Source of the DNA: a plasmid
DNA length: 64,000 nt
Reading direction: 5' to 3' (one strand)
Sequence record: NZ_CP137560.1
Below are positions 10,318 through 47,293 of this stretch, piece after piece. The translations under genes and the position numbers were made by a program. Position 1 is the stretch's first letter; each line of letters starts with the position of its first letter. Below the pieces are notes generated by a model that saw only the letters and a list, made by a program, of their open reading frames with translations, made no database searches and was not told the origin of the DNA.

Positions 10318-10578
10318 TTACAGACCAAAGAACAAAGGCAAGCTCTGAGCTGCGGCAATGAGGAAGATACAAGCACCTACTATCAGCATGATGCTCTTCT
10401 TGAAATCTTGCTGATTGTTCGTAACGTACTGATAATCAACACTGATTGGAATGATAAAATGACGAAAGAAACAAATTAGGAACAACATAATTGAGAAACC
10501 CCAAAATGAAAGTATGGGAAAACAAAAATTAACATAGAAAACAACGGAATTTTTCCGATTTTGGCATTCATAAATCAA
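10318..10578 (-). CDS. traE: chimeric TraE (DUF4134) ORF: authentic traE 3' end (10318..~10403) fused in frame to a repeat-encoded surrogate N-terminus
   Basis: C-terminus SIMLIVGACIFLIAAAQSLPLFFGL matches the TraE/DUF4134 C-terminal consensus; N-terminal 58 aa are encoded by the 248-bp repeat and recur verbatim at 13234..13608. Confidence 0.5.
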   Translation of the reverse strand: MIYECQNRKNSVVFYVNFCFPILSFWGFSIMLFLICFFRHFIIPISVDYQYVTNNQQDFKKSIMLIVGACIFLIAAAQSLPLFFGL

Positions 10579-10651
10579 CTACAAAAGAAGAATCTTATAA
10601 GTAGGTACATCTGTTTTCATTTTAACAGAATATAGTGATATGCAAGATAAA
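10404..10651. repeat. ~248-bp direct repeat, copy A (left end of the insertion in traE); carries a traE-like 5' coding segment
   Basis: Near-identical (a handful of mismatches) to 13434..13682; identity starts right after a TCTTGA at 10398..10403 and ends at gataaag. Confidence 0.85.
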
Positions 10652-10822
10652 GAGGGAAAGAGTCACTGTAAATCATACAAAAATCAATGGGATTTCCAAT
10701 TAGACAAATTATTTTCGCTTTTTATAATGATTTTCGGATTTAACAAACGATATTTGGAGAAGAATGAGTATTTTTGCAACCGAAAACAAAAATAATATAC
10801 GCAATGGCTTACGGAAAATCGT

Positions 10823-11020
10823 TTGTCAAGATTCCAAAATAGAATCACTCCGTCTTGGATAAAAGATATGGGGGAAAACGAGATTTTTGTGTTTGCCAGT
10901 AATGTCAACGGTTATCATGGAGGTGGACCTCATGTGAATTTTGAAACACTGAAGCCAAATCCCAACAAACCTGGAAAGATGATGGTTGATCAAAATTATC
11001 ATGTTTTCATAACCGAATAA
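10823..11020 (+). CDS. hypothetical small protein
   Basis: First ORF of a same-strand run of short AT-rich ORFs between the repeats. Confidence 0.25.
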   Translation: MSRFQNRITPSWIKDMGENEIFVFASNVNGYHGGGPHVNFETLKPNPNKPGKMMVDQNYHVFITE

Positions 11021-11024
11021 TAGA

Positions 11025-11285
11025 ATGAAAAAAGTCACATTAAATGTTCCGAATTATTCCCCTGATACCGGAGTGGCACTCAATTGGGAAGGTAATTTCA
11101 CAATTAAGGTCTCCGATATAAATGGGAGCGTCTCAATTGAGGCTAATACCGAGGGATTAGTTTCTTTAGCAAATCACTTGCTAAATTTATCCCAATCATC
11201 GGTTCCTATAGGAACTCATCTTCATCTTGATGAGTACAACTCTCTTGAAGAAGGATCTTTAGATTTAATAATCGAAAAGATTTGA
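11025..11285 (+). CDS. hypothetical small protein (immunity-protein-like size)
   Basis: 86 aa, 4-bp spacing from the upstream ORF. Confidence 0.3.
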   Translation: MKKVTLNVPNYSPDTGVALNWEGNFTIKVSDINGSVSIEANTEGLVSLANHLLNLSQSSVPIGTHLHLDEYNSLEEGSLDLIIEKI

Positions 11286-11348
11286 TTCCAATAAGTCTGT
11301 TTATGGGTCTGACAATACGATCCATAAACAAATCTAATAGATTAACAG

Positions 11349-11699
11349 ATGATTGAAGATATGTTCTTTTGCGTTCTTTCAATTGTAGTGGGAGGCTATT
11401 TAGTGTCTCAAAAATTAAGAGCTATTTATAATAGACTCCCCCTTTCTCTAAAAGATAAGATTTCTTTTGGGGAAGGACTCATCCTAATTATATCTGGGTT
11501 CATTGCATTATATGTGAAATCGGCTATACCAATTAATGCTTTGCTTTTTGGGTGTTTCCTACTTCCGAAAATGTATCAACAAGAAAAGTATTGGAATGCT
11601 CGTCGTTTTACAACCGCATACATAATGCATTGTAGCGGTTGGATTTTAAGTATAGGGCTTATTATCTATGGTATTCTCCAATTATTTCAGCCTATATAA
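11349..11699 (+). CDS. hypothetical small membrane protein
   Basis: 116 aa with 3-4 predicted TM helices. Confidence 0.35.
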   Translation: MIEDMFFCVLSIVVGGYLVSQKLRAIYNRLPLSLKDKISFGEGLILIISGFIALYVKSAIPINALLFGCFLLPKMYQQEKYWNARRFTTAYIMHCSGWILSIGLIIYGILQLFQPI

Positions 11700-11740
11700 A
11701 TTGTAAGAACATAGATTAGTTCAACAATAAAACAAATTCA

Positions 11741-12118
11741 GTGAGGCTATGTTTAAAAAAAATTGAAAATCGAATTGTTATCACACCGCCTTCAGGCATG
11801 ACTGTTGAGCAATTTGATGAGATGGTTATTAAAACAGGTAATAGCTTTGGAAATAATCCCAATATTACATACTGTTTAGAGCCATTCGAACAAACACAAG
11901 GTAATTGTAATTCAAGTTCAAGTACGTTGCTTTATAAAGCGGGGGTTCCTTTAAGTAGGATAAAGGATTTGAGGAAGCAAATATCAGGTTTTGTTTGGGG
12001 ATTTGGTGATATTAAACCGTGGACAGTAGAGGAACAGTCAAAAGCTGTTCAGAGGCAGAGGGAATTCGACCAACTCCGTAATGAAATGATGAACACAATC
12101 ATCCTTAACAAATATTAA
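11741..12118 (+). CDS. hypothetical protein
   Basis: 125 aa; stop overlaps start of next ORF (taaATG). Confidence 0.3.
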   Translation: MRLCLKKIENRIVITPPSGMTVEQFDEMVIKTGNSFGNNPNITYCLEPFEQTQGNCNSSSSTLLYKAGVPLSRIKDLRKQISGFVWGFGDIKPWTVEEQSKAVQRQREFDQLRNEMMNTIILNKY

Positions 12119-12595
12119 ATGAGAAAATTGAGTTTTAAAATGGTCATAAGAGCATATTTAATATGTGCTCTTATGACATCAATATTAGGAATTATATCAT
12201 GCAGTGTTCATGACATAATAAATTGGTTTCCAATCGTATTACTTTATGCTTGGATAATATTGTCTCCAATATCTATTTTAGCATTGATAACTGTATATTT
12301 ATTGGGAGTTCAAAGAGATTGGATTTGTAAGATACCGTTAATTTGCTTATGCGCATTTATAGTATATTTTATAAACCTAAACTCATCAGAATCTTATTTG
12401 ATTAATTTTTTTGCAACCCAAACCGTACCATATGACCTTCTATATTACAATAATGGAATAGAGATAAGGGTCAATGACACTATTTTTTCTATTTTCACAT
12501 GGGTATTATCGTATTTTATATTAGTATTGCTTATTGTTATATCTACAATTATGTATAGATTTTTTAAAAAGCATAGCAAAATAAAATTATTCTAA
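12119..12595 (+). CDS. hypothetical polytopic membrane protein
   Basis: 158 aa, at least four hydrophobic helices. Confidence 0.35.
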   Translation: MRKLSFKMVIRAYLICALMTSILGIISCSVHDIINWFPIVLLYAWIILSPISILALITVYLLGVQRDWICKIPLICLCAFIVYFINLNSSESYLINFFATQTVPYDLLYYNNGIEIRVNDTIFSIFTWVLSYFILVLLIVISTIMYRFFKKHSKIKLF

Positions 12596-12639
12596 AATAA
12601 AGTGTTCTCATTAGTGATGATACTAAATCATTCTGTACA

Positions 12640-13434
12640 ATGCTCACCATCCAGCACAGCGGCCCAGACGGTGAGATTACCACCACCTTCGAGTACGACG
12701 GCATACAGCGCCTTGTTCGTGTCACCGACATGGAGGGCAATGTAACGACCTCTACTTACGACATGGGTGACCGCCGTACTGAGGTGAACCATCCTGCAAG
12801 CGGCATCACAAGTTTCACTTATGATGCGCTCGGCAATGTGCAGACTAAGCAGACTGCCAACCTTGCCAAGGAAGGAAAGTTCATTACTTACGATTACGAC
12901 TATCAGCGTCTGACGGGTATCAACTACCCAGACCATCCGGAGAACAACGTGAAGTATTACTATGGTGGTCGCAACGCCTCTCAGAACCGTATCGGTAGAT
13001 TGATGCTCCGCGAGGACGGAACAGGTGCCATTGAGTATTTCTATGGCAAGATTGGCGAGGTGACGAAGACCCGCCGCACGATGATTGTGCCTAACCAGGC
13101 GATAGCAACCTACGTGACGCAATGGACTTACGACAGCCACAACCGTCTGTTGGAGATGATTTATCCTGATGAGGAGAAAATCACTTACTCTTACAATCTC
13201 GGTGGTCAGCTTGAAAAGGTCCATGGCTACAAGTCATACGGCTATGACTATGTGAGCAAGATTGGCTATGACAAGTTCGAGCAGCGCAGCTACCTGAAGT
13301 ATTGCAACGGCGCGGAGACATTCTACACCTTCGACAACCGCCGCCGTCTCAGCAATCTCGCGGTCAACAGCGGCAACACGTCCATCATGGACAATGACTA
13401 TACGTTTGACGCGGTGAGCAATGTCCTCTCTTGA
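12640..13434 (+). pseudogene. RHS/YD-repeat protein fragment (internal repeat region only; no N-terminus, no C-terminal tip)
   Basis: Repeated YD motifs (FEYDGIQRL, STYDMGDRR, FTYDALGNV, ITYDYDYQRL, WTYDSHNRL, YTFDNRRRL); abrupt GC-rich block in AT-rich surroundings; terminated by stop inside the TCTTGA junction with repeat B. Confidence 0.7.
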
Positions 13435-13682
13435 ATCTTGCTGATTGTTCGTAACGTACTGATAATCAACACTGATTGGAATGATAAAATGACGAAAGAA
13501 ACAAATTAGGAACAACATAATTGAGAAAACCCCCAAAAAAAGTATGGGAAAACAAAAATTAACATGGAAAACAACGAAATTTTTCCGATTTTGGCATTCA
13601 TAAATCAACTACAAAAGAAGAATCTTATAAGTAGGCACATCTGTTTTCATTTTAACAGAATATAGTGATATGCAAGATAAAG
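13434..13682. repeat. ~248-bp direct repeat, copy B (left end of the integrase-bearing element)
   Basis: Near-identical to 10404..10651; preceded by TCTTGA (13429..13434). Confidence 0.85.
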
Positions 13683-13818
13683 GTAACTATTCAGTTCACC
13701 ACTACACAGAATGATAAGATTGCTTAATAAATACGAAATAGTATAAACTTGTTTAATAAAAATAACAACATGTTTGTTTTTGGACTATATTTACAACAAA
13801 TTTTAAAATTTATCAATT

Positions 13819-14178
13819 ATGTATATGGCTAATACTGCTACGGATACGTTGTCAACGGAAACCATGAATCCTCCAAAAGGTTCTTATGTCAATATGGTTG
13901 GTCAAGCGACAGGGAAAAGAGTAAGTGGAACTATCTCCAATGTTTCATATGATGTTCTTAATGCAAGTAAGAAAGTGTTGCTTCAAGATGTTTATCTTGC
14001 GACATATACTTCAAAAAGCGGTGATAGTGGGGGTATTGTATATGCTCTACGTTCAGCACACAATCAACGTCTAACTGTAGGTATAAATATAGGTTCTGCA
14101 AAAATTAACCGTACTACTTATGGCATGTGTGTAAAAGCATCGAATATAAATAGAATTTTTGGACTTACAAGATACTAA
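13819..14178 (+). CDS. orphan C-terminal half of a trypsin/chymotrypsin-fold serine protease domain (possible toxin-tip fragment)
   Basis: KSGDSGGIVY (GDSGG serine nucleophile motif) followed by GINIGSA, but no upstream His/Asp barrel; only 119 aa. Confidence 0.4.
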   Translation: MYMANTATDTLSTETMNPPKGSYVNMVGQATGKRVSGTISNVSYDVLNASKKVLLQDVYLATYTSKSGDSGGIVYALRSAHNQRLTVGINIGSAKINRTTYGMCVKASNINRIFGLTRY

Positions 14179-14187
14179 AGGGCTGTC

Positions 14188-14697
14188 ATGAATTTCTTAT
14201 TTAAGACATTTTGCATTATGGTCATATTCACGATGTTCGTGGATATGACCGCTCTAAGTAATAACATAACGAATAGAGATGGTTTATGGCGTGTTGATTC
14301 AGACTCCGTCACAATTACCACAAGCTATAGTGAGAAACAGCCAGAAAAATTAAATGTATGCATTTATAATCACAGCAATTCGACGATATATATAGGGCGA
14401 ACTTATGGATTGTTGATGCAAGTAGATGGGGAATGGAAATACATTGCCAAAGGTAGAAATCAAAAGTGCATAACTATATGGCCAGCGTCAAAACGTAACT
14501 TTCAAGTCAGTCTATGCGCTAAGAAAATAAAAAGCTCCTCTGGATGGGCATATAGAACAGATTCACTTTACAAAGTAAGATTTGACATGTATGACAGCGA
14601 TGGCGTTTTTATTGACAAAATGGACTCTGATTTCAAAGTTTCTGGTAATATTGTTTGGCATCTGACTGACGGATTAGTGATTATACATTTAGATTGA
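14188..14697 (+). CDS. secreted/membrane-anchored hypothetical protein (candidate immunity partner)
   Basis: N-terminal hydrophobic signal/anchor MNFLFKTFCIMVIFTMFVDMTALS; 10-bp spacing from the upstream ORF. Confidence 0.4.
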   Translation: MNFLFKTFCIMVIFTMFVDMTALSNNITNRDGLWRVDSDSVTITTSYSEKQPEKLNVCIYNHSNSTIYIGRTYGLLMQVDGEWKYIAKGRNQKCITIWPASKRNFQVSLCAKKIKSSSGWAYRTDSLYKVRFDMYDSDGVFIDKMDSDFKVSGNIVWHLTDGLVIIHLD

Positions 14698-14706
14698 ATA
14701 TTCCAA

Positions 14707-15111
14707 ATGCGACATCTCAATTCTTCAATATACGTAGATTGGTTGGATCCATCAATGCCCGCTCGTACATGTGGAAGAACAGCAGAAAATATAAAAGAGA
14801 AAATAAAAAAATATGATAAGTTTATACTTGTTGCTACAGAAGGTGCTATTGCGTCAAAATGGTGCAATTGGGAATTAGGCTTTGGTGATGCTCAAAAGTA
14901 TGCTTACGGTAAAATAGCCTTATTTCCTATCCGTTATGACGAAAAGGATTGGTCAGAAAGTGAATACTTAGAACTATATCCTGTTATAGGATATATTGAT
15001 AGTTGTCAATATTCGGATGAGTTTAATCAATCCCTTTTTACAGGTTATTATGTTTTTTGTCATTATGGCACGAAGAAGGCAATAAAATTGGTTGATTGGT
15101 TATCGAGATAA
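14707..15111 (+). CDS. TIR-like domain protein (stand-alone, 134 aa)
   Basis: KFILVATEGAIASKWCNWEL closely resembles the TIR alphaC-region motif (cf. [20 protein letters not shown] in TLR TIR domains); size matches a single TIR domain. Confidence 0.4.
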   Translation: MRHLNSSIYVDWLDPSMPARTCGRTAENIKEKIKKYDKFILVATEGAIASKWCNWELGFGDAQKYAYGKIALFPIRYDEKDWSESEYLELYPVIGYIDSCQYSDEFNQSLFTGYYVFCHYGTKKAIKLVDWLSR

Positions 15112-15169
15112 TAATAGAAATCGCCTAACTTTAAGTGCAAACTTAATGTTAGGCAGTAACTCGTCTATC

Positions 15170-15772
15170 TCATATATAGTTCTGTGCAATTATCATTCCA
15201 ACACCTCCTGCAACAACAAAGATACCAATCGTGAAGAAAAAACAAAAGAACCATTGTGCATAGTGACCGAGATAGCAACCATCATATTCCTTGTAGCGTT
15301 CACGGACTTTCTTCCGTTCATCGGCAAACATGGAATTGACCTCACGGATATGCATCTGCATCTGTGCGGTCATCCATTGGCGTTCTTTGGCAAACAGTTC
15401 TTGGATTTTCTGCCAGTCAGCATCATTGACATTTACAGACACCTTTAATTTAGTGGAAGCATTCTCCAAGACCTTGTCTATGTGCTGATTGATGGTATCT
15501 ACCTTTTTGCCGATGGTAGTCACAGCACCACCCAATTGAACTTCCGAACGCTGATACTGCTGAATGGCAGACTCCAGTTCAAGTGTGGCATTGATGAAGG
15601 TGTCGGTTGCCTTATCAATGTCCTTACTCAACTGCTTCAACTCAGGAACACGGTTTACAAGTCCGTCTTCGGCTTGCTGTTCCTCGACCTCGTTTTCGAC
15701 ATCATTCATCATGTTGTCGAAGTCGGATCTTTCTTCTGTGTCTATGTTTATCTTGCTTTTTCTGATTGCCAT
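15170..15772 (-). CDS. hypothetical coiled-coil protein with C-terminal TM anchor, downstream of relaxase
   Basis: 200 aa, acidic coiled-coil N-terminus, hydrophobic C-terminal ~35 aa; 12-bp gap after relaxase. Confidence 0.4.
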   Translation of the reverse strand: MAIRKSKINIDTEERSDFDNMMNDVENEVEEQQAEDGLVNRVPELKQLSKDIDKATDTFINATLELESAIQQYQRSEVQLGGAVTTIGKKVDTINQHIDKVLENASTKLKVSVNVNDADWQKIQELFAKERQWMTAQMQMHIREVNSMFADERKKVRERYKEYDGCYLGHYAQWFFCFFFTIGIFVVAGGVGMIIAQNYI

Positions 15773-15784
15773 ATTGTTATTGAT

Positions 15785-17017
15785 TTATCGGTGGAAACTT
15801 CTACTGCGTGGTTTAGGCTTGCACATGGAATGAGCCATCTGTGCGCAACGGTGGGCAAACTTCCAGTCATCTTCATCGTCTTTCTTTCCCCAACCAGATT
15901 CAGGAGAAGAACCGCCACCGCCACATGACTCAGACATGGAAGTGGCTGCATCAATGTACCCTGCAAACAACAGCATTGCTACATGAGCGACATTCTCCGT
16001 TGTCGCTATATCATTATCCTCTGGAATCTGAGCCTCATTAGTAAAGACATCTTTGACAGAGTTCGGAATCCACACCTTCTTGACTCCATCGCCAATGTTA
16101 ATTTGGAATGCTGTTTTTGAAGGTTGAACTTGTGCCTTTGGTTGTGATGCTGTTGAAGTCTGAGCGACAGGACGAACTGGGCGAGGCGTTGAAGCAACGG
16201 ATGGTGAAACAGGCTTTTCCTTGACCTGTGTAGGTTGTGGGTGCAGTTTCTTCCATGTGTCTTCAATCTTTGACACCATGTACTTTCTGCCAATCTCAGA
16301 AGCCTTGAACACGGAAGCGTTCTTGCCGACTGTATAGCCGACAAGTTTCCGCTGCTTGTCGTAACGAGGTTTAACCTCATAGCCTTTCATGCGCAACAGA
16401 TTGAAATATCTGTCAATGTTGAACTGCTGCATATCTTTGAGGATATGTTCGCAATCCTCCGCAAGTTCAGCCTTTCGCATATTCCGAATCTCCTGCGGTT
16501 GTTCCCATCCATGGCGCTTATTGATGATTTCCGCAGCCTTCATTGCCCGAAGGTGAATATCGTGTACATCATTGGTCTTACCCTCCATATCCACACGACA
16601 ACAATCAATGTGAAGGTGCAGCATTCCAGACTTGGAATCAGAGTGCAGTCCGCCCACATTCATAGAATTGGTGAAGTTGGTCTTTATTTCATTGGAGAAA
16701 CCGTTGGGCGAAAGTCCAACAGAATCCAAAACTCCCAATGCTTCGTCTTGGAGGTTTGCCCAATCTGCCATCGTGAAGTTTGCAGACTCTTCCTTTGATG
16801 GGGAAAGTACAAAAGTGGTCATGAACCTTTCCAACTTTCTGCCAACCGTCCTTTCCGCCTGATGATACTGGCAATGATGCTTCATCATGTACCAGATGGC
16901 GGTAGGGTCAAGACCATCGGGCATGTTGTTCACCTTGACCGTCTTTGCCTTCTCCTTTTCCAATGCGTACCTTACGGAATTGCCTCCATACGATACGACC
17001 TTTGCGAGCATAATCAT
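15785..17017 (-). CDS. mobilisation relaxase (MobA/VirD2-type relaxase domain, Bacteroides MobB-like)
   Basis: N-terminal MIMLAKVV.YGGNSVRYALEKEK motif (relaxase motif I with Tyr), HLHID His-cluster motif, Pro/Ser-rich linker. Confidence 0.8.
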   Translation of the reverse strand: MIMLAKVVSYGGNSVRYALEKEKAKTVKVNNMPDGLDPTAIWYMMKHHCQYHQAERTVGRKLERFMTTFVLSPSKEESANFTMADWANLQDEALGVLDSVGLSPNGFSNEIKTNFTNSMNVGGLHSDSKSGMLHLHIDCCRVDMEGKTNDVHDIHLRAMKAAEIINKRHGWEQPQEIRNMRKAELAEDCEHILKDMQQFNIDRYFNLLRMKGYEVKPRYDKQRKLVGYTVGKNASVFKASEIGRKYMVSKIEDTWKKLHPQPTQVKEKPVSPSVASTPRPVRPVAQTSTASQPKAQVQPSKTAFQINIGDGVKKVWIPNSVKDVFTNEAQIPEDNDIATTENVAHVAMLLFAGYIDAATSMSESCGGGGSSPESGWGKKDDEDDWKFAHRCAQMAHSMCKPKPRSRSFHR

Positions 17018-17424
17018 GATTGTTCCTTTGATTTTGTCTGTACGTTTGTTGCGATATTCTCTTCAATGCTATACCAATGTTGGATAAGTCCTGCAACGGC
17101 ATCAATCCACCAACGCATGAACTTCTCATTCTTGAAGAACCGAGCCTTTTCCTCAGCCGTTTTCTTGGATAGCACGTTGCTGATTTTTATCAAATCCGTC
17201 CTTGCGATGGCGAGAGAGTTGAGAGCGTCCACCTCTTCCTTGGTGAGCCTCATGCGTGGACGGTGCTTTAAGCCAGTCTCAACGACATAGCGGCTCAGGC
17301 TTAACCCACACTCCTTGGCATGTGTCTGGAGACGTTTCAATTCCTCTTCCGTGCATCGGTAGGTATGGACTTCCGTAGGCGGTTTTCTTATGATGTTCTT
17401 CTTTCTCATTTGTTCTTGTCTCAA
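17014..17424 (-). CDS. MobC-family relaxosome accessory protein
   Basis: 136 aa; overlaps relaxase start by 4 bp; RHH-like ...CTEEELKRLQTHAKECGLSLSRYVVE... typical of small Bacteroides Mob proteins. Confidence 0.65.
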   Translation of the reverse strand: MRQEQMRKKNIIRKPPTEVHTYRCTEEELKRLQTHAKECGLSLSRYVVETGLKHRPRMRLTKEEVDALNSLAIARTDLIKISNVLSKKTAEEKARFFKNEKFMRWWIDAVAGLIQHWYSIEENIATNVQTKSKEQS

Positions 17425-17503
17425 ATTAAAATGGGATGATTACAAGCATCTTACAAAGGTGGTCACGACTGCGAGCCTGCGAGTAGTCCGAGAAACTTTT
17501 AGG

Positions 17504-17534
17504 AATACAGAAAGACGGACACGGCTTCTGTATT
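17504..17534. promoter_or_regulatory. candidate oriT hairpin: AATACAGAA-(13 nt)-TTCTGTATT inverted repeat in the mobC-upstream intergenic region
   Basis: Perfect 9-bp inverted repeat in the 270-bp gap upstream of mobC, where oriT is found in NBU-type elements. Confidence 0.3.
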
Positions 17535-17694
17535 ACAAAAGGATTTCTCGAAAAGTACCTATAAAATGACGGCACTTTTAACAGCCTCCGTCCCCAAGGC
17601 TGCTTAAACGTATAACAGTTGGGCGGTAGCCTATGGCGGTTAATCGTCCTTTGGGATGATTTTTATGTATAGTGGCTTATTTGCCTCTGTATGC

Positions 17695-18519
17695 CTATTG
17701 ATTGCCGTTATGGTATTCGTTAGGTTTGTAGCCATTGGCATTAGAACCGTTCGACTGTTGTGTTTGACCTCCAAACTGATGCTGTGGATATGTGTTGTGC
17801 TCTCCCTCATTCTGTTTGGCATCTGCTTCTTGCAGGGAAGAAGGATTGCCAACAGACTGTCTGGAGTAGTTTTGCTGTGGAGAAATTCCACCAGTAATAG
17901 CATCGGAAAGATTGCCATTAGTTCCGATCTTACCCACGCTTCCATTATCATTAGATGAAGCCGAATTTAGGGAAGAAGAAATATCTGCCGTAGAAGAATT
18001 GCCCTTTTTGTCTGTATCGGATATTCCATTGGAAAAATGCCCATCTTCCTTGTCCGACTTTGTATCAACCCCCGTTGTCGTAACAATTACTCTTACTTGT
18101 GGAACTTCCGTGTGGATGATTGCAGAGCCATCAGTATTGCGCTTCAATGAAAATCCGTTCTTGAAAAATCTTCCGTCCACATACCAACCAGAGAGGGAAT
18201 GCAGGGTAATGATGCGGTTGTCTCCAACTTTTTGTGAAGAGGAAATCCCCACAGCCTCCATAGCCTGTAAAAGTTTGGGTACGGTCTTGCGGTCTTTATC
18301 CCAGAGTTTGGCAAGTTGGGTATTGTCAACCATACATTGCCCACACAAGATTTCCACTTGTTGGGTCTTGCTGATAGGTACAAGTGTTGTTTCACGTTCG
18401 GCAAGAGAGGCAAGAGACATGAAGCATTCCATGCGGTCAATCTTGTACTTCTTGCAGCGAAGATACTCCATCTGTACATCGGACAGCGTGAAGTAGTAAT
18501 GTATCTTTTGTTTATCCAT
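17695..18519 (-). CDS. conserved mobile-element backbone protein (paralog of 552..1202)
   Basis: Motif LAKLWDKDRKTVPKLLQAMEAVGI shared with 552..1202; Ser/Gly/Asn/Gln-rich C-terminal tail. Confidence 0.5.
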   Translation of the reverse strand: MDKQKIHYYFTLSDVQMEYLRCKKYKIDRMECFMSLASLAERETTLVPISKTQQVEILCGQCMVDNTQLAKLWDKDRKTVPKLLQAMEAVGISSSQKVGDNRIITLHSLSGWYVDGRFFKNGFSLKRNTDGSAIIHTEVPQVRVIVTTTGVDTKSDKEDGHFSNGISDTDKKGNSSTADISSSLNSASSNDNGSVGKIGTNGNLSDAITGGISPQQNYSRQSVGNPSSLQEADAKQNEGEHNTYPQHQFGGQTQQSNGSNANGYKPNEYHNGNQ

Positions 18520-18583
18520 CTTCTGTAAATTTTGAATATTATAACCATAAATGGCAAGACTGTTTTTCTCAGTAAAGAGAAAA

Positions 18584-18901
18584 TCATCTGTGCCGTCCTC
18601 TCCTTGGGGAAATGTCCTCTGCTATAACATAGAGCTCGCCTTGCAACCTGTCATTAGAATGGCTGCTTAATCGTGAAATGCACTCAATGCAGACAGACTG
18701 GGCAAGAAGTTTTCTTCTTCCGACAGTTGCTTCATCATTGATGCCCTTGTTGGCTCCGCATTGTTCGGCAAGCTGATTGAAAGCATCACGCATCCGAAAG
18801 TAGCCGTTGCCAGTATTGATGTAGCTCACGGCAAGGTCAGCGACATTCGCCAACTTGCTTCTGTACTCCTCATGGGAAATATCGTCCTTCATCATCGCCA
18901 T
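18584..18901 (-). CDS. hypothetical protein, mobile-element backbone
   Basis: 105 aa; 2-bp gap from the HTH gene. Confidence 0.35.
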   Translation of the reverse strand: MAMMKDDISHEEYRSKLANVADLAVSYINTGNGYFRMRDAFNQLAEQCGANKGINDEATVGRRKLLAQSVCIECISRLSSHSNDRLQGELYVIAEDISPRRGRHR

Positions 18902-18903
18902 GT

Positions 18904-19221
18904 CTATTTACAAAGTTCACTCATGTGCTTGGTCGCTGCAGCCTTGGTCTCAGCCTCGGACATACTGCGGTTCTGGCGCATCCAGTTCAAAAGTTCGGAC
19001 TTCTCAAAGTAGATAATCTTGCCGTTGGGACGGAAGAACGGAAGTTCATGCTTGTGTGTCATCTTGTAGAGACTACTCTTTGATATACCCATGAATAAGG
19101 CTGCTTCCTCCAGTGTCAATACTTGCTTGGCATCACGGAGTAGGTTCTCCATTATCCCAATGCGGTGCTCATGTGACTCTACCTTCAAGAGAAGAGTCTC
19201 GGTGTCGATAGTTTTGTTCAT
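18904..19221 (-). CDS. helix-turn-helix DNA-binding protein, excisionase-like
   Basis: LTLEEAALFMGISKSSLYKMTHKHELPFFRPNGKIIYFEKSELLNWMRQ; paralog of 1626..1958. Confidence 0.6.
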   Translation of the reverse strand: MNKTIDTETLLLKVESHEHRIGIMENLLRDAKQVLTLEEAALFMGISKSSLYKMTHKHELPFFRPNGKIIYFEKSELLNWMRQNRSMSEAETKAAATKHMSELCK

Positions 19222-19360
19222 TATCCTGTAATTTATTGTTTGTAATTCGTTGTACTGCTTGTTTTGAAAGTGTAGTCCCCCAAGACAGAGAGAATTCCCT
19301 GCCCGAAAAATGGGGACTACAAAAGTGAAATTTACTGGTTGTTATCCTGAAAAGTTCCGT

Positions 19361-20677
19361 TTACTTGTTATCCTGTAAAAAAGTTATTCTGCGTGGATGG
19401 GTGTTGGTGGCTGCTGTCCGCTTTGTCCTCGGTATTTGCTTGTTCTCCTCACGCTGTTTGCGACCTCGAAAGGCTTTCTTCGTGTTGTCAACAGCCTTGA
19501 CCTTTTCATTCGTCAGCACATCTGCATAGATGGCGGTGGATTTGAGCGACTTGTGTCCCATCAGTTTCTTGGTAGTCTCAATGTTGCCGGTAACCGCCTG
19601 CACCAAAATTCCGAATGTATGTCGGGAACAGTGAAAAGAGATATTCTTCTCAATGCCCACCTTTTTGGCTATCCTTTTAAGGGCAGCATCCACATTAGCC
19701 TTAGCAGGAAGGTGGAACACAAAATCATCATCACCTTTGGGTGGCATCCATGACAAGGCGGTATTGCCGATTGGTACGGCATTGAGAGCCTTTGTTTTCT
19801 TTTGGACGATTACAAGCGTGTTCGTTTCCTTGTTTCTCTTGATGTCACTCCACCGCAGAGCCTTGATGTCGCTTATACGAAGTCCTGTCAGACAGGCGAA
19901 ACCGAAAGCCTTTTGTGTCTCTGCAACTCCTGGACTTCTCTCATCTGAAGCCATGAACCTTTTCAGTTCATCGGGAGTGAGATACTGCTTATGTGATGAC
20001 TTTGGCTTGGGAAAGATGTCAGACTTCTCCAACAGGTAGAAAGGGTTAGCCTTCAATTTACCGAACTTGACAGCCTTGTTGAATACCGCCACTGTGCGCT
20101 GTTGAACATTGTGAAGCGAGCCTTCACACAAAGGCTTGGCTTCAACTCGTACATACTTCTGTGGTACATAGTCGTTCTTCAGCCAAAGGAAGAAAGCCTT
20201 GAACCATTCCTTGTCGAACTTCCTCAGAGTGATGTGAGGTCTGCGCTTGTTGGCAAGGAACTCGCTCATTAGGTATTTCAAATACTTTGACTGGTCAACA
20301 ATAGCCTTGGAGTAGTCTGTATTGTCGCTCATCCAGTCGATGTAAGTCTGGATCCAGTCCATGACTTCGGGAGACTCGTCATTGGGGATTTCCTTCACAA
20401 TCATCAAGTGACCTACCTCTGGGATGGTCTCTGGATGAAGAATACGCTCTGCCCTTATCTGGTGAGCACGTTGCAATGTTTCTTCGTTTCTTGCTTTGGT
20501 CTCTGCATCAACCTCTGGCAACAAATAGAGAGAAAGAAATTCAAACTTGCGCTTGCCACCATCGTAGATGTCAAGATACAAGCTTATGTTGTCGTTGGCA
20601 AGTGCCTTTTGTCTGATAGTTATTGTCATGTCTATATATATATTCGTTGTCAATGATTTATGTGAACATACCGTCAA
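19361..20677 (-). CDS. tyrosine site-specific integrase with N-terminal arm-DNA-binding domain
   Basis: N-terminal ISLYLDIYDGGKRKFEFLSLYL arm-binding-type domain; C-terminal HCSRHTF...LMGH...STAIYADV (R-H-R-Y catalytic signature). Confidence 0.85.
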   Translation of the reverse strand: MTVCSHKSLTTNIYIDMTITIRQKALANDNISLYLDIYDGGKRKFEFLSLYLLPEVDAETKARNEETLQRAHQIRAERILHPETIPEVGHLMIVKEIPNDESPEVMDWIQTYIDWMSDNTDYSKAIVDQSKYLKYLMSEFLANKRRPHITLRKFDKEWFKAFFLWLKNDYVPQKYVRVEAKPLCEGSLHNVQQRTVAVFNKAVKFGKLKANPFYLLEKSDIFPKPKSSHKQYLTPDELKRFMASDERSPGVAETQKAFGFACLTGLRISDIKALRWSDIKRNKETNTLVIVQKKTKALNAVPIGNTALSWMPPKGDDDFVFHLPAKANVDAALKRIAKKVGIEKNISFHCSRHTFGILVQAVTGNIETTKKLMGHKSLKSTAIYADVLTNEKVKAVDNTKKAFRGRKQREENKQIPRTKRTAATNTHPRRITFLQDNK

Positions 20678-21830
20678 TGAGGTTTATGGCTTCCTCCTTC
20701 TTCTTATCCACGATTTTAGCATAGATTTCCGTGGTCTGAATGTTGGAATGTCCCATCAGCTTGCTTGTGGTAAAAAGGTCTGCACCGAGAGTGAGCATCA
20801 TCGTTCCGAACGTGTGCCGTGAGCTATGGAATGAGATATGCTTCTCTATCCCTGCCGCTTCCGCCCATTTGCGGAGAGCCCTGCCTATAACGGTCTGTGT
20901 GGTCGGTATGTCAAAGAAAGGAATATCATTTCCTCTTGGCTTTGGCAACCACCGCTTAGCCTCTTCCGAGAGAGGTATTATAACTGGCTTCTCCGTCTTT
21001 TGCATTTCCATGTCTATGTATTCGCCCTTTCCGTCAGCGGTCTTGAAGATGTGCATCGGAGCAAGATGGTACATGTCACTTAATCGCAATCCAGTAAAAC
21101 AGGCGAAGATGAAAGCCTCCTTGACCTCTGGGCGGTAACTGTCCGTAGCCATGAGGGTACGAAGTTCCTCAATGGTCAGATACTCTTTCTTGCCGTCCTT
21201 GGGCTGAATGCGCTCACGTGCATCAAGTTCTTTCATAGGGTTGTTGCGAATAATGCCTTGTCGCACAGCGTTATTGAGAGCAGTGGAGAACATTCCGAGG
21301 TATCGGCTTGCCGTATTCTCGCTGATTGGTCTTGGCTCGCCATACTTGATATGGGAGTTTGGGAAGTTACGCAAGAACTTCACATATCCACGGCAGAACT
21401 CCGCATTGACCTCTTCAAGCGAAATGAAGCCTTTGTTGGTCTCGTCAAGATACTTCTCCACGGTGTGCAGCATTTCCACACGGCAATGGAGCGTTGACTT
21501 CTTGATGCCGACACCACCTTCACAATACTTCTTTATCCATGTGGTAAGAAGCATCGAGCCTTGTTTTACTGTCTCCCAGTCCTGTATGCCGTGACCATGC
21601 AGGGCTTTGATGCGCTCTGCCTTGATGCGTTCTGCAACTGCCATAGTCTGCTTGTTCTGTTCCTTGCAAATGGGATTGATTTCGGGAACGAGGTAGAGTT
21701 TGAGGTATTCATACTTCCTCACTCCCTTGTAGTAGATGTCAAGATAGATACTCTTGTTGCCATCTGCGAGCGACTTCAACCGAATTTTAATCGGTTCTTT
21801 CAGCTTTACTTGTTTCTTTGGTCTTGCCAT
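20658..21830 (-). CDS. tyrosine site-specific integrase (second, tandem copy)
   Basis: SIYLDIYYKGVRKYEYLKLYL N-terminal domain; HSSRHTF...LMGHSNIQTTEIYAKI catalytic motifs; 20-bp overlap with the downstream integrase. Confidence 0.85.
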   Translation of the reverse strand: MARPKKQVKLKEPIKIRLKSLADGNKSIYLDIYYKGVRKYEYLKLYLVPEINPICKEQNKQTMAVAERIKAERIKALHGHGIQDWETVKQGSMLLTTWIKKYCEGGVGIKKSTLHCRVEMLHTVEKYLDETNKGFISLEEVNAEFCRGYVKFLRNFPNSHIKYGEPRPISENTASRYLGMFSTALNNAVRQGIIRNNPMKELDARERIQPKDGKKEYLTIEELRTLMATDSYRPEVKEAFIFACFTGLRLSDMYHLAPMHIFKTADGKGEYIDMEMQKTEKPVIIPLSEEAKRWLPKPRGNDIPFFDIPTTQTVIGRALRKWAEAAGIEKHISFHSSRHTFGTMMLTLGADLFTTSKLMGHSNIQTTEIYAKIVDKKKEEAINLIDGMFT

Positions 21831-21978
21831 GATGTATGAAGTGTTATTTTGTTTTTGTATTCTGCTACATTGGAGGGTCTTTCTCCCTCTTGTTGAAAGT
21901 TCATGTCAGATATGGTTTCCTATGCTGACATTTGCTTTTCTTTCTCTTCCCTTACTTCGGAAAACTGATGTAAAGATA

Positions 21979-22024
21979 AGAAAACAAACCGAGAAACGAG
22001 AAACAAAACGGAAACAAGAAACAG
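21979..22024. repeat. cluster of 4-5 direct (A/G)GAAAC(A/G) repeats; candidate integrase arm-type sites at the int-proximal element end
   Basis: aagaaaacaaaccGAGAAACGAGAAACaaaacgGAAACaaGAAACag between the integrase start and the traE junction. Confidence 0.4.
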
Positions 22025-22028
22025 TCTT

Positions 22029-22469
22029 TTATGTCTTTTTAAGAGTGAGTTTAGCAAACATCGGAAAATTCAAATTGTCGCTTAAAGCATTGATACTTAG
22101 CGCATTTACTTTCATTTGCTTTCTTGTCTTTTCAAACGCATTTTGTAGGACTAAGATATTCTTGACATCCTGCTCCTCGTTGTTCATCTTCACATACACG
22201 GAGATAGCACCGATGATAGCTACGATACCTGCAATGGCATAGCAGAGGTTGGTGACCACAGGCACATACTTCTTCAAGCTATCTGTAGAGGTCTCGATGG
22301 CTGCAAGACCGGCATCCACATTCTGTGCGAAAGTGGAAATAGACACCACCAAGAGCATCATGGTCAACATACCCATGCGTGGGTTAGAAACGAAAGACTT
22401 GGCTTTCTTCACAGTGGCTGTGGCGCAACGTTTTGCGCCGCAAGCCAAATTACTGATTACTTTGTTCAT
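22029..22469 (-). pseudogene. traE: traE 5' fragment (DUF4134 signal peptide and first TM, through ...VYVKMNNEEQDVK) whose ORF then runs into element DNA
   Basis: MLTMMLLVVSISTFAQ signal peptide and AIETSTDSLKKYVPVVTNLCYAIAGIVAIIGAISVYVKMNNEEQDVK are TraE-like; the following 43 aa (NILVLQNAFEK...) are encoded by the inserted element. Confidence 0.6.
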
Positions 22470-22530: not shown

Positions 22531-22884
22531 TTACCACAAATGATCGGTTACACCATAATGGAAACCGAAGAATGATGGGAAGACCACCGTGGAAACACAT
22601 AGGAAAATCAAACTTCCTATCAGAATAATCACGCTCTTGGTGAATCCTTCCTCTCCAGTTTGCATCTTAATGTAGATGTTGGTAGCACTATAGAGCGACA
22701 GCAAGGTGGCAATAGCGTACATGAGCTGAGCCACGTAGGAGCACATGGTCAGCACATAGGTGACCATATCATATAGCCTTCCGGTATTGCCGCTATAATC
22801 TGTTGTACCACAGTTGGCCATCGCAACCTGAGAGCATAGAAGCATGAGCAGGGCTAATGCCAATAGTCTAAAGTTATCCTTCAT
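22531..22884 (-). CDS. TraE-like DUF4134 family small membrane protein (complete paralog)
   Basis: Signal peptide plus ...YIKMQTGEEGFTKSVIILIGSLIFLCVSTVVFPSFFGF matching the DUF4134 C-terminal pattern. Confidence 0.55.
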   Translation of the reverse strand: MKDNFRLLALALLMLLCSQVAMANCGTTDYSGNTGRLYDMVTYVLTMCSYVAQLMYAIATLLSLYSATNIYIKMQTGEEGFTKSVIILIGSLIFLCVSTVVFPSFFGFHYGVTDHLW

Positions 22885-47224: not shown

Positions 47225-47293
47225 GGAAAATGTGGAATTCTCTCTCAAAATATCGCTTTTAAACGATATTTTGAGAGAGAATTCCACATTTCC
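47225..47293. repeat. ~69-bp near-perfect palindrome (30/31-bp arms, 8-nt loop)
   Basis: GGAAAATGTGGAATTCTCTCTCAAAATATCG-cttttaaa-CGATATTTTGAGAGAGAATTCCACATTTCC directly after the 46254..47201 stop. Confidence 0.7.

Follow-up and report, generated by a model that had tools for sequence, protein, structure and literature searches.

A probable integrative mobilizable element in the DUF4134 gene of a Bacteroidales-type conjugative element and its probable 7-bp strand-exchange region

We analysed a 64,000-nucleotide stretch of plasmid DNA (record NZ_CP137560.1; hereafter the window) and found that positions 10404-22165 are an 11.76-kb insertion, probably an integrative mobilizable element, in a DUF4134 gene of a Bacteroidales-type conjugative element. 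The assignment to integrative mobilizable elements follows from two tyrosine integrases encoded in tandem, together with an excisionase-like protein and a putative relaxase. A preliminary description of this DNA had pointed to the hexamer TCTTGA, shared by three element junctions, as a candidate crossover site of a tyrosine recombinase. In our view it is very probable that the element is site-specific, with a 7-bp overlap between its fixed ends and DUF4134 as its target, and that the copy in the window is a composite formed by integration at a secondary site.

Precise insertion and the sequences at the junctions

Once positions 10404-22165 are deleted, the minus-strand segments 22469-22166 and 10403-10318 join in frame and encode a 129-amino-acid (aa) protein. 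This protein matches the Pfam DUF4134 profile over 2-93 of its 93 positions (E 3.5e-31) and aligns gap-free, at 98% identity, with the intact gene of a related locus (L004; related loci are numbered with the prefix L). Genes for a second DUF4134 protein, for DUF4133 and for a 970-aa TraG-type ATPase are found nearby; the region is the conjugation region of a conjugative element of the Bacteroidales type. Empty sites were found by looking up the DUF4133 protein in contigs from other metagenomes. Ten contigs carry the same conjugative element without the insertion, each with a single TTCTTGA, and their common reading, ...catgatgctc TTCTTGA catcctgctcc..., fixes the right junction exactly. Since the empty sites hold one 7-mer and the rejoined gene aligns gap-free, the insertion is precise: it measures 11,762 bp and has a 7-mer on each side. 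Thus, the core is single in the empty site and double in the occupied one, and removal of the insertion restores the target, as for a site-specific integrative element. The features that define the insertion are:

10318..10403, minus strand: 3' part of the interrupted DUF4134 (TraE-like) gene, giving DUF4134 when joined to 22166-22469
10397..10403, plus strand: left-junction 7-mer TTCTTGA, proposed overlap (strand-exchange) region of attL, present once in the ten empty sites and abutting the invariant left end AATCTTGCTG
10404..10652, plus strand: left arm (P' arm), copy 1 of a 249-bp direct repeat
21831..22158, plus strand: right arm (P arm), 328 bp, ending ...GGACTAAGATA and conserved to the same last base
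22159..22165, plus strand: right-junction 7-mer TTCTTGA (putative attR overlap region), placed by the empty sites and junction comparison
22166..22469, minus strand: 5' part of the interrupted DUF4134 gene, by the profile match of the rejoined protein

An intact second DUF4134 paralogue is located at 22531-22884, directly upstream of the interrupted copy, so the insertion may be tolerated by the conjugative element. In a variant of this conjugative element (L015:4001-9119), the TraG ATPase gene is split by a gene encoding a group II intron-type reverse transcriptase (RVT_N, RVT_1, GIIM).

The hexamer TCTTGA was indeed found on the plus strand at all three coordinates, 10398-10403, 13429-13434 and 22160-22165. 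It is not enriched in the window (64 matches versus 60.2 +/- 8.0 in shuffles), and the signal is therefore positional: with 34 plus-strand copies over 64,000 positions, the chance that this hexamer would also lie, to +/-1 nt, at two other boundaries is about 2.5e-6. The 7-mer TTCTTGA has 27 matches versus 19.0 +/- 4.5 in shuffles. The two outer junctions have 7 nt in common, TTCTTGA at 10397-10403 and 22159-22165, and their similarity extends rightward, with TTCTTGAaATCtTGCTg and TTCTTGAcATCcTGCTc matching at 14 of 17 positions.

The claim that the hexamer sits exactly where homology begins or ends stood for these two junctions but not for the middle one, at which an Rhs gene fragment meets the element. 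There, the last letter of the hexamer (A at 13434) already belongs to the repeat as its first base. The only long direct repeat of the window, 249 nt in length (10404-10652 and 13434-13682), is 97% identical and gap-free, and in its register the 7 nt preceding the second copy are TCTCTTG (13427-13433) without TTCTTGA, leaving the hexamer one base off register. A gapped reading of this junction (TCTTGA-ATC, a 1-nt deletion) was dropped because the repeat aligns without gaps and the flanks of L014 and L021 are equal in length. The ungapped reading puts a different 7-mer into the same slot, which lies between the fixed element ends, ...GACTAAGATA on the right and AATCTTGCTG... on the left.

Around 60 related loci were gathered by exact-protein look-ups and pattern scans, and 33 left-end and 29 right-end sequences were compared, several of them repeat recoveries of the same insertion (about 50 junctions overall). 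Across these loci the element itself is 96-100% identical. The flanks, in turn, comprise at least six DUF4134 variants that are 70-80% alike and at least seven unrelated chromosomal sites, and a near-identical element in such divergent or unrelated surroundings denotes independent insertions. Every right end stops at ...GACTAAGATA, the right arm being 96-100% conserved up to this identical last base in all 29 cases, and every left end begins with AATCTTGCTG (AACC in one event). Only the 7 bases between these ends vary:

TTCTTGA: most junctions
TCTCTTG: every Rhs junction, and the DUF4134 left junctions of L014 and L022
TTCTTCA: left junction of L042, right junction of L053
TTCTTTA: left junction of L070 (L070:8258-8264)
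TTCCATA: right junctions of L047 and L055
TCATAAC: left junctions of L020 and L046

All six variants begin with T, in a small sample. The TTCTTTA of L070, which lies in another DUF4134 variant, fits a third synonymous valine codon (GTA) in the target. Insertions at the unrelated loci L001, L017, L023, L048 and L068 are flanked by TTCTTGA. Four elements have unequal 7-mers at their two ends, namely L014 (TCTCTTG left, TTCTTGA right), L020, L053 and L042 with L035. The preliminary description had suggested that further copies of the repeat be searched for and that each should abut TCTTGA, with any other boundary speaking against a crossover there. Most junctions do carry TTCTTGA, but copies with variant 7-mers were found as well, which formally counts against the proposal; instead of refuting it, these exceptions map the exchange region.

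As for the distribution of the family, the public assembly collection lists the 105-aa excisionase-like protein in 46,110 blocks. In species-representative genomes, a scan with a 20-mer of the repeat produced just two chance matches (20-22 nt matching in Anaerobiospirillum and Pirellulaceae contigs) and no additional repeat copy. In two chromosomal copies with the basic cargo (L019:9490-9608 and L022:9500-9608), the left flank consists of about 90 bp of the DUF4134 3' end up to the stop codon, and AATGACA-rich short repeats precede this remnant.

Location of the strand exchange

Natural sequence variation in the target allowed the exchange to be located. Eight empty sites read TTCTTCA-cgtcctgttcc, a synonymous change in a valine codon, and insertion into this TTCTTCA target is seen with both outcomes: in L053 the left end carries TTCTTGA and the right end TTCTTCA, while in L042 with L035 (one contig) the left end carries TTCTTCA and the right end TTCTTGA. 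Such reciprocal outcomes are expected if the strands are exchanged at staggered points on either side of the mismatched base and replication then resolves the heteroduplex. The bases that border the 7-mer never behave in this way. The base directly to its left is always flank-type at attL and element-type at attR, and the base directly to its right (A in the element, C in the target) is always element-type at attL and target-type at attR. Furthermore, the left junction of L014 shows element-borne differences at 7-mer positions 2-7, and the right junction of L047 shows target-type bases at positions 4-6. Mismatches in the overlap thus segregate to either junction and those outside it do not, with one exception (L020, discussed below). 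The reciprocal segregants, the behaviour of the bordering bases and the L014 and L047 junctions together therefore confine the exchange to the 7-mer; the exact cleavage positions we infer.

The deduced attP core, AAGATA-TTCTTGA-AATCTT, is an imperfect inverted repeat in which 5 of 6 bases are symmetric around a 7-bp spacer. An inverted repeat around a short spacer is the usual layout of tyrosine-recombinase sites, and the element combines fixed ends at independent sites with an overlap in the 6-8 bp range between inverted core sites. Tyrosine-recombinase strand exchange at the motif, as put forward in the preliminary description, is well supported by the integrases, the precise insertion, the invariant ends and the reciprocal TTCTTCA segregants. 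The notion of a short identical core needs to be amended: the unit is 7 bp and not 6, the Rhs junction has its own 7-mer, and identity is dispensable. The last point is best illustrated by L020, whose empty site reads ...aaattct TCATAAT AACCTaacaac (L044, L045). This target shares 2 of 7 overlap bases with attP, and the element integrated there, with the target 7-mer (TCATAAT/TCATAAC) now on its left and TTCTTGA on its right. Over all cases, 1 to 5 of the 7 overlap bases are mismatched; an identical overlap is usual but not required. Unequal ends, a target with 5 of 7 mismatches and an Arm-DNA-bind_5 domain in both integrases are the properties of heterology-tolerant recombination of the CTnDOT kind.

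To judge from their sequences, the two integrases, IntA and IntB, would be the catalysts of integration, and the 7 bp between the fixed ends would form the overlap, bounded by two staggered strand exchanges. The preferred target would read TTCTT[G/C/T]A followed by C[A/G]TCCT inside DUF4134. As this target resembles attP over about 17 bp, excision would restore DUF4134 exactly. Mismatched overlaps would leave different 7-mers at the two ends, and a 7-mer may then travel with the element in the style of a coupling sequence. The predicted attP joint is ...TTTGTAGGACTAAGATA-TTCTTGA-AATCTTGCTGATTGTTCG..., and the predicted restored target is ...CATGATGCTC-TTCTTGA-CATCCTGCTCC....

Composite structure and alternative readings

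Between its outer left junction and the integrase-bearing part, the element in the window holds a second left arm and toxin-immunity DNA:

10653..13426, plus strand: toxin-immunity segment, presumably captured, with an Rhs toxin gene end, Imm32 (11025-11285), three small open reading frames (ORFs) and an Rhs core fragment (12640-13434), by Pfam (Imm32 E 3.3e-16, RHS_repeat E 1.2e-15)
13427..13433, plus strand: internal-junction 7-mer TCTCTTG, separating the Rhs fragment from the second left arm, identical across composite copies
13434..13682, plus strand: left arm copy 2, the left end of a basic 8.7-kb element, from the direct repeat and the existence of single-arm elements

We found the Imm32-Rhs segment in the window and in L016-L018, L021, L023, L066, L067, L070, L071 and L074, and its absence in L014, L015, L020 and L022. 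The internal junction is identical in all composites, which implies a single origin of the composite, followed by its spread. The segment is a mosaic whose parts match Rhs orphan arrays at 97-99% identity, and Imm32 is normally located downstream of a gene for an Rhs protein of about 3,000 aa. Similarity to Rhs relatives ends at 13428, inside the first two bases of the 7-mer; the relatives run on AGCGTGGT... (...NVLSVVNG), and in the DNA for the closest Rhs proteins TCAGCGT stands in place of the TCTCTTG of the window. In L068 and L069 the outer 7-mer TTCTTGA, the left arm and the Imm32-containing genes occur alone in the chromosome (99.1% identical to window positions 10397-12836). This block (L068:2721-8777, L069:2667-8723) lies inside an ISAZ013-type transposase gene and continues into the complete end of an orphan Rhs toxin and on to a 226-aa ORF and an ankyrin protein, without integrases and without a right end. 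A related element (L024:937-20261), which has genes for tandem integrases (407 and 409 aa), for a relaxase and a NikA-like protein and for two HTH_17 proteins, is located directly downstream of Imm32, an orphan Rhs array and a gene encoding an Rhs protein of 3,019 aa.

From these data we infer, as the simplest reading, that a sibling element with the same arm held the Rhs and immunity cargo and that the basic 8.7-kb element (13434-22165) entered a secondary site in the Rhs fragment of that cargo. The resulting pair would move as one unit by means of the outer left junction and the right junction. The recurrence of TCTCTTG at the DUF4134 left junctions of L014 and L022, which lack the segment, indicates that the 7-mer travels with the element and hints that the internal junction is able to act as a left site. 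If so, the predicted donor remnant is ...GAGCAATGTCC-(7-mer)-CATCCTGCTCC....

A more far-reaching possibility, which we put forward only tentatively, is that the duplicated left arm marks a working route of gene capture with an active internal junction, nested mobile units and immunity blocks stacked into mobile defence islands. Family members would integrate at secondary sites inside the Rhs toxin genes of sibling elements, and excision from the outer left junction would leave toxin-remnant and immunity blocks stacked and riding inside conjugative elements. The Rhs junction would stay an active alternative left site, its TCTCTTG appearing as if exported to L014 and L022.

Several observations weigh against the site-specific, composite-element reading. 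First, L020 shows a swap between its two junctions (L020:7945-7961 and 16676-16692) at the third base beyond the right edge of the 7-mer, where the element has T and the target has C, a pattern not predicted by a 7-bp overlap. This is a single event in which both differing positions are synonymous third-codon positions, and it suggests either an exchange point 4-5 nt further right in a poor site or two coincident single-nucleotide polymorphisms. Second, neither an attP joint nor an excised circle was found with the pattern ACTAAGATA-N7-AATCTTRCTGATTG in the viral collection and the fetched loci, although assemblies rarely hold such joints, and the shorter core AAGATA-N7-AATCTT has no match in the window. 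Third, the parental Rhs gene was not encountered among the Rhs relatives searched, the closest proteins being 90-94% identical, and a search for the inner-excision product (Rhs flank, 7-mer, DUF4134 flank) returned none. Finally, the relaxase assignments fall under curated cut-offs.

We regard it as unlikely that the Imm32-Rhs segment is an integron-like cassette or a cis-mobilizable circle with its own arm-plus-core site, inserted by the integrase at a resident left junction. This would account for the 7-mer-plus-arm units that bound the segment on both sides, for its occurrence apart from the basic element (L068, L069) and for the coexistence of elements with and without it; moreover, rAID-1 elements are known Bacteroidales orphan-immunity arrays with repeated intergenic sequences (10.1101/471110). 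However, both bounding sites are of the left-junction type, so the circle would need a site made of Rhs DNA, the 7-mer and the arm, and no such circle or solo junction was found in the attP and inner-excision pattern searches. There is only ever a single segment, never an array of more than two arms, and the one identical internal junction in every composite points to a single origin. The defining features of integrons and of rAID-1, two kinds of system suggested by a repeat that precedes immunity-gene blocks, are likewise lacking. An integron was rejected since the integrases score 58 and 41 bits with the NCBIfam integron-integrase model (cut-off 265) and since the repeats are 249-bp direct arm copies and not attC-like imperfect palindromes. 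In rAID-1, a 5' XerD-like recombinase, >44% identical to BF9343_RS08045, is followed by at least two co-oriented low-GC short genes with repeated intergenic motifs (10.1101/471110). Here, the integrase genes have the opposite orientation and are separated by 4-6 kb, including the mobilization module, from the immunity genes, and rAID-1 was therefore rejected as well.

Another placement of the exchange has to be weighed, namely in the 5-7 bp AATCT(TG) to the right of the motif, with a heterologous coupling sequence in the style of CTnDOT or MTnPi1-3 and TTCTTGA as a conserved recognition motif only. L020 agrees with it: its left junction shows the C of AACCT from the target, and its right junction the T of AATCT from the element. 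So do tandem-integrase transposons of Prevotella, in which a fixed motif stands beside five variable bases, TTAC-NNNNN-AA (PMC4755523 supplement), and the two positions of this stretch at which DUF4134 targets differ from attP. Yet, in about ten independent DUF4134 insertions the stretch is always element-type on the left and target-type on the right, without two-way segregation. It is the G/C inside the 7-mer that segregates both ways (L053 versus L042 with L035), and the L014 and L047 differences described above also fall inside it. A rightward exchange predicts none of these four observations, and we consider it quite improbable. An exchange shifted to positions 6-12 or 8-12 was also tried; it fits L020 but fails L014, L047, L053 and L042 with L035.

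Hardly credible is a 7-bp target-site duplication by a DDE-type transposase, with a coincidental copy at the Rhs junction: a 7-bp direct repeat does flank the 11.76-kb insertion and is single in the empty site, but Pfam profile searches of the element ORFs found no transposase domain, with two tyrosine integrases and an excisionase-like gene present instead, the same 7-mer at the unrelated loci named above denotes sequence specificity, and the unequal 7-mers of the four elements are impossible by duplication, so this candidate was rejected.

Gene content, related systems and significance

The remaining features of the element are:

13683..15111, plus strand: basic-element cargo, with a 119-aa ORF, a 169-aa Ig-like ORF and a TIR-domain ORF (Big_14, weak; TIR_2, E 1.5e-6)
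15170..17424, minus strand: mobilization module, with a 200-aa ORF (15170-15772), a putative relaxase (15785-17017) and an MbpA/NikA-like accessory protein (17014-17424), by Pfam and NCBIfam
17695..19221, minus strand: 274-aa and 105-aa ORFs without assigned function (17695-18901) and an excisionase-like helix-turn-helix protein (18904-19221), by Pfam and NCBIfam
19361..20677, minus strand: second tyrosine integrase, IntB (422 aa as called in other contigs), with Arm-DNA-bind_5, Phage_int_SAM_5 and Phage_integrase
20658..21830, minus strand: first tyrosine integrase, IntA, 390 aa, with Arm-DNA-bind_5, Phage_int_SAM_5 and Phage_integrase

IntA and IntB, encoded in tandem on the same strand next to the right arm, are tyrosine recombinases: each carries PF00589, PF13102 and PF17293, and their pairwise alignment (34% identity) makes a conserved HxxR...Y stretch visible. 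A protein identical to IntA is encoded at another chromosomal site in L001. The excisionase-like protein matches Pfam HTH_17 (E 1.1e-13) and the NCBIfam excisionase-family domain with 41.7 bits (cut-off 28.8). Matches of the relaxase-like protein are weak for Pfam Relaxase (E 0.0022) and reach E 7.4e-23 for NCBIfam MbpB, at 81 bits versus a cut-off of 400. The accessory protein is NikA-like (E 7.3e-12) and matches NCBIfam MbpA with E 4.9e-15, under the curated cut-off. An exact-sequence look-up of the 410-aa relaxase ORF gave no match, probably owing to a start-codon difference. No type IV secretion (mating-pore) genes were found inside 10404-22165 in Pfam profile searches of the element ORFs, and no oriT was located.

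The GC content of the cargo is 30-35% versus about 45% in the backbone. The basic cargo is conserved beside the arm in L014-L023. The same integrase, excisionase and mobilization backbone is found in L047-L056 with quite different cargo, for instance fimbrial genes of the Mfa-like kind, AbiH together with methylases and a restriction enzyme of the MvaI/BcnI type, PAAR/gp25/baseplate genes, or an inserted IS21. Family members with other cargo (L050, L053) retain the first ~170 nt of the left arm. Both arms contain GAAAC-rich and TTTTCCGA motifs. The GAAAC repeats form a cluster in the right arm at 21980-22020, and GAAAC(A/G)A-type motifs are concentrated in the arms, with 4 strict matches per 577 bp versus 0.34 per kb in the window; TTTTCCGA has one copy in the left arm and two inverted copies in the right arm. 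By their sequence and location (21980-22020, 10467-10545, 10551, 21957 and 22061), these motifs could be candidate arm-type integrase sites. Apart from the element, and apparently unrelated to it, the window has a near-perfect palindrome at 47228-47291, with 31-nt arms that are 97% complementary and 2 nt apart.

By architecture, the closest described elements are MTnPi1, MTnPi2 and MTnPi3, mobilizable transposons of Prevotella intermedia that excise as circles and have att sites composed of a short fixed motif and bases differing between attL and attR (PMC4755523). Compared by description only, they share with the present element two tandem tyrosine recombinase genes, a relaxase (putative in the present element) and variable cargo. 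In contrast, their att core is TTAC/TTGC-NNNNN-AA and not TTCTTGA, they possess a primase-family gene (no ORF here has a primase or Toprim domain), and their targets are hypothetical chromosomal genes instead of a conjugation gene. In CTnDOT, the integrase (IntDOT) is a tyrosine recombinase with an N-terminal arm-binding domain, the 7-bp overlap tolerates heterology and coupling sequences travel with the element. An arm-binding integrase and tolerated overlap heterology are thus common to both systems, although CTnDOT is self-transmissible. Unlike CTnDOT and the NBU elements, the present element has a preferred target that matches attP across the full 7-bp overlap (14 of 17 positions overall), and heterology is exceptional. 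MTnBf8 (PMC13597742) was rejected as a member of a different family.

Conjugative transposons act in trans to mobilize NBU elements, which also integrate at secondary sites with low frequency (PMC5704250). NBU1 and NBU2 differ from the present element in having a single integrase, tRNA gene ends as targets and common cores of 13-14 bp. Integrative mobilizable elements of Firmicutes are known to target conserved genes of conjugative elements, e.g., traG of the Tn5252 superfamily (PMC5704250). There, too, the site lies inside a conjugation gene of a potential helper, but the phylum, recombinases and target gene are different. We found no description of DUF4134 as a target in the literature searched, which is not proof of absence. 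Composites formed by site-specific integration, with an internal att-type junction and movable as a whole, were described as tandem accretion in the ICESt1/ICESt3 family and for cis-mobilizable elements (PMC5704250). Classical accretion uses a resident attL or attR and yields an attP-like internal junction; here, Rhs coding DNA is joined to the left arm, which argues for a secondary site inside the cargo. AID-1 and rAID-1 are mobile orphan-immunity arrays of gut Bacteroidales with toxin-gene remnants, low GC and tyrosine recombinases (10.1101/471110; PMC12247911). The likeness to the present element lies in mobile low-GC orphan-immunity cargo and tyrosine recombinases, although AID-1 was reported on a conjugative element and the present element is mobilizable.

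The element, a common one in gut Bacteroidales, is a new, well-resolved case of a known kind of mobile DNA and leaves the understanding of tyrosine recombination unchanged. The exchange region was located without experiment, with the synonymous valine codons GTC, GTG and GTA of DUF4134 as natural markers, and attachment-site anatomy is now available at base level for an element whose excisionase-like protein is found in more than 46,000 public assembly blocks. A preferred site inside a pilin-like gene of Bacteroidales conjugative elements is an arrangement known in Firmicutes and agrees with the view that mobilizable elements exploit their helpers. Of greatest interest is the evidence for the uptake of toxin-immunity blocks by such elements: the composite suggests a simple route by which orphan toxin-immunity genes may enter small mobile elements of gut Bacteroidales.

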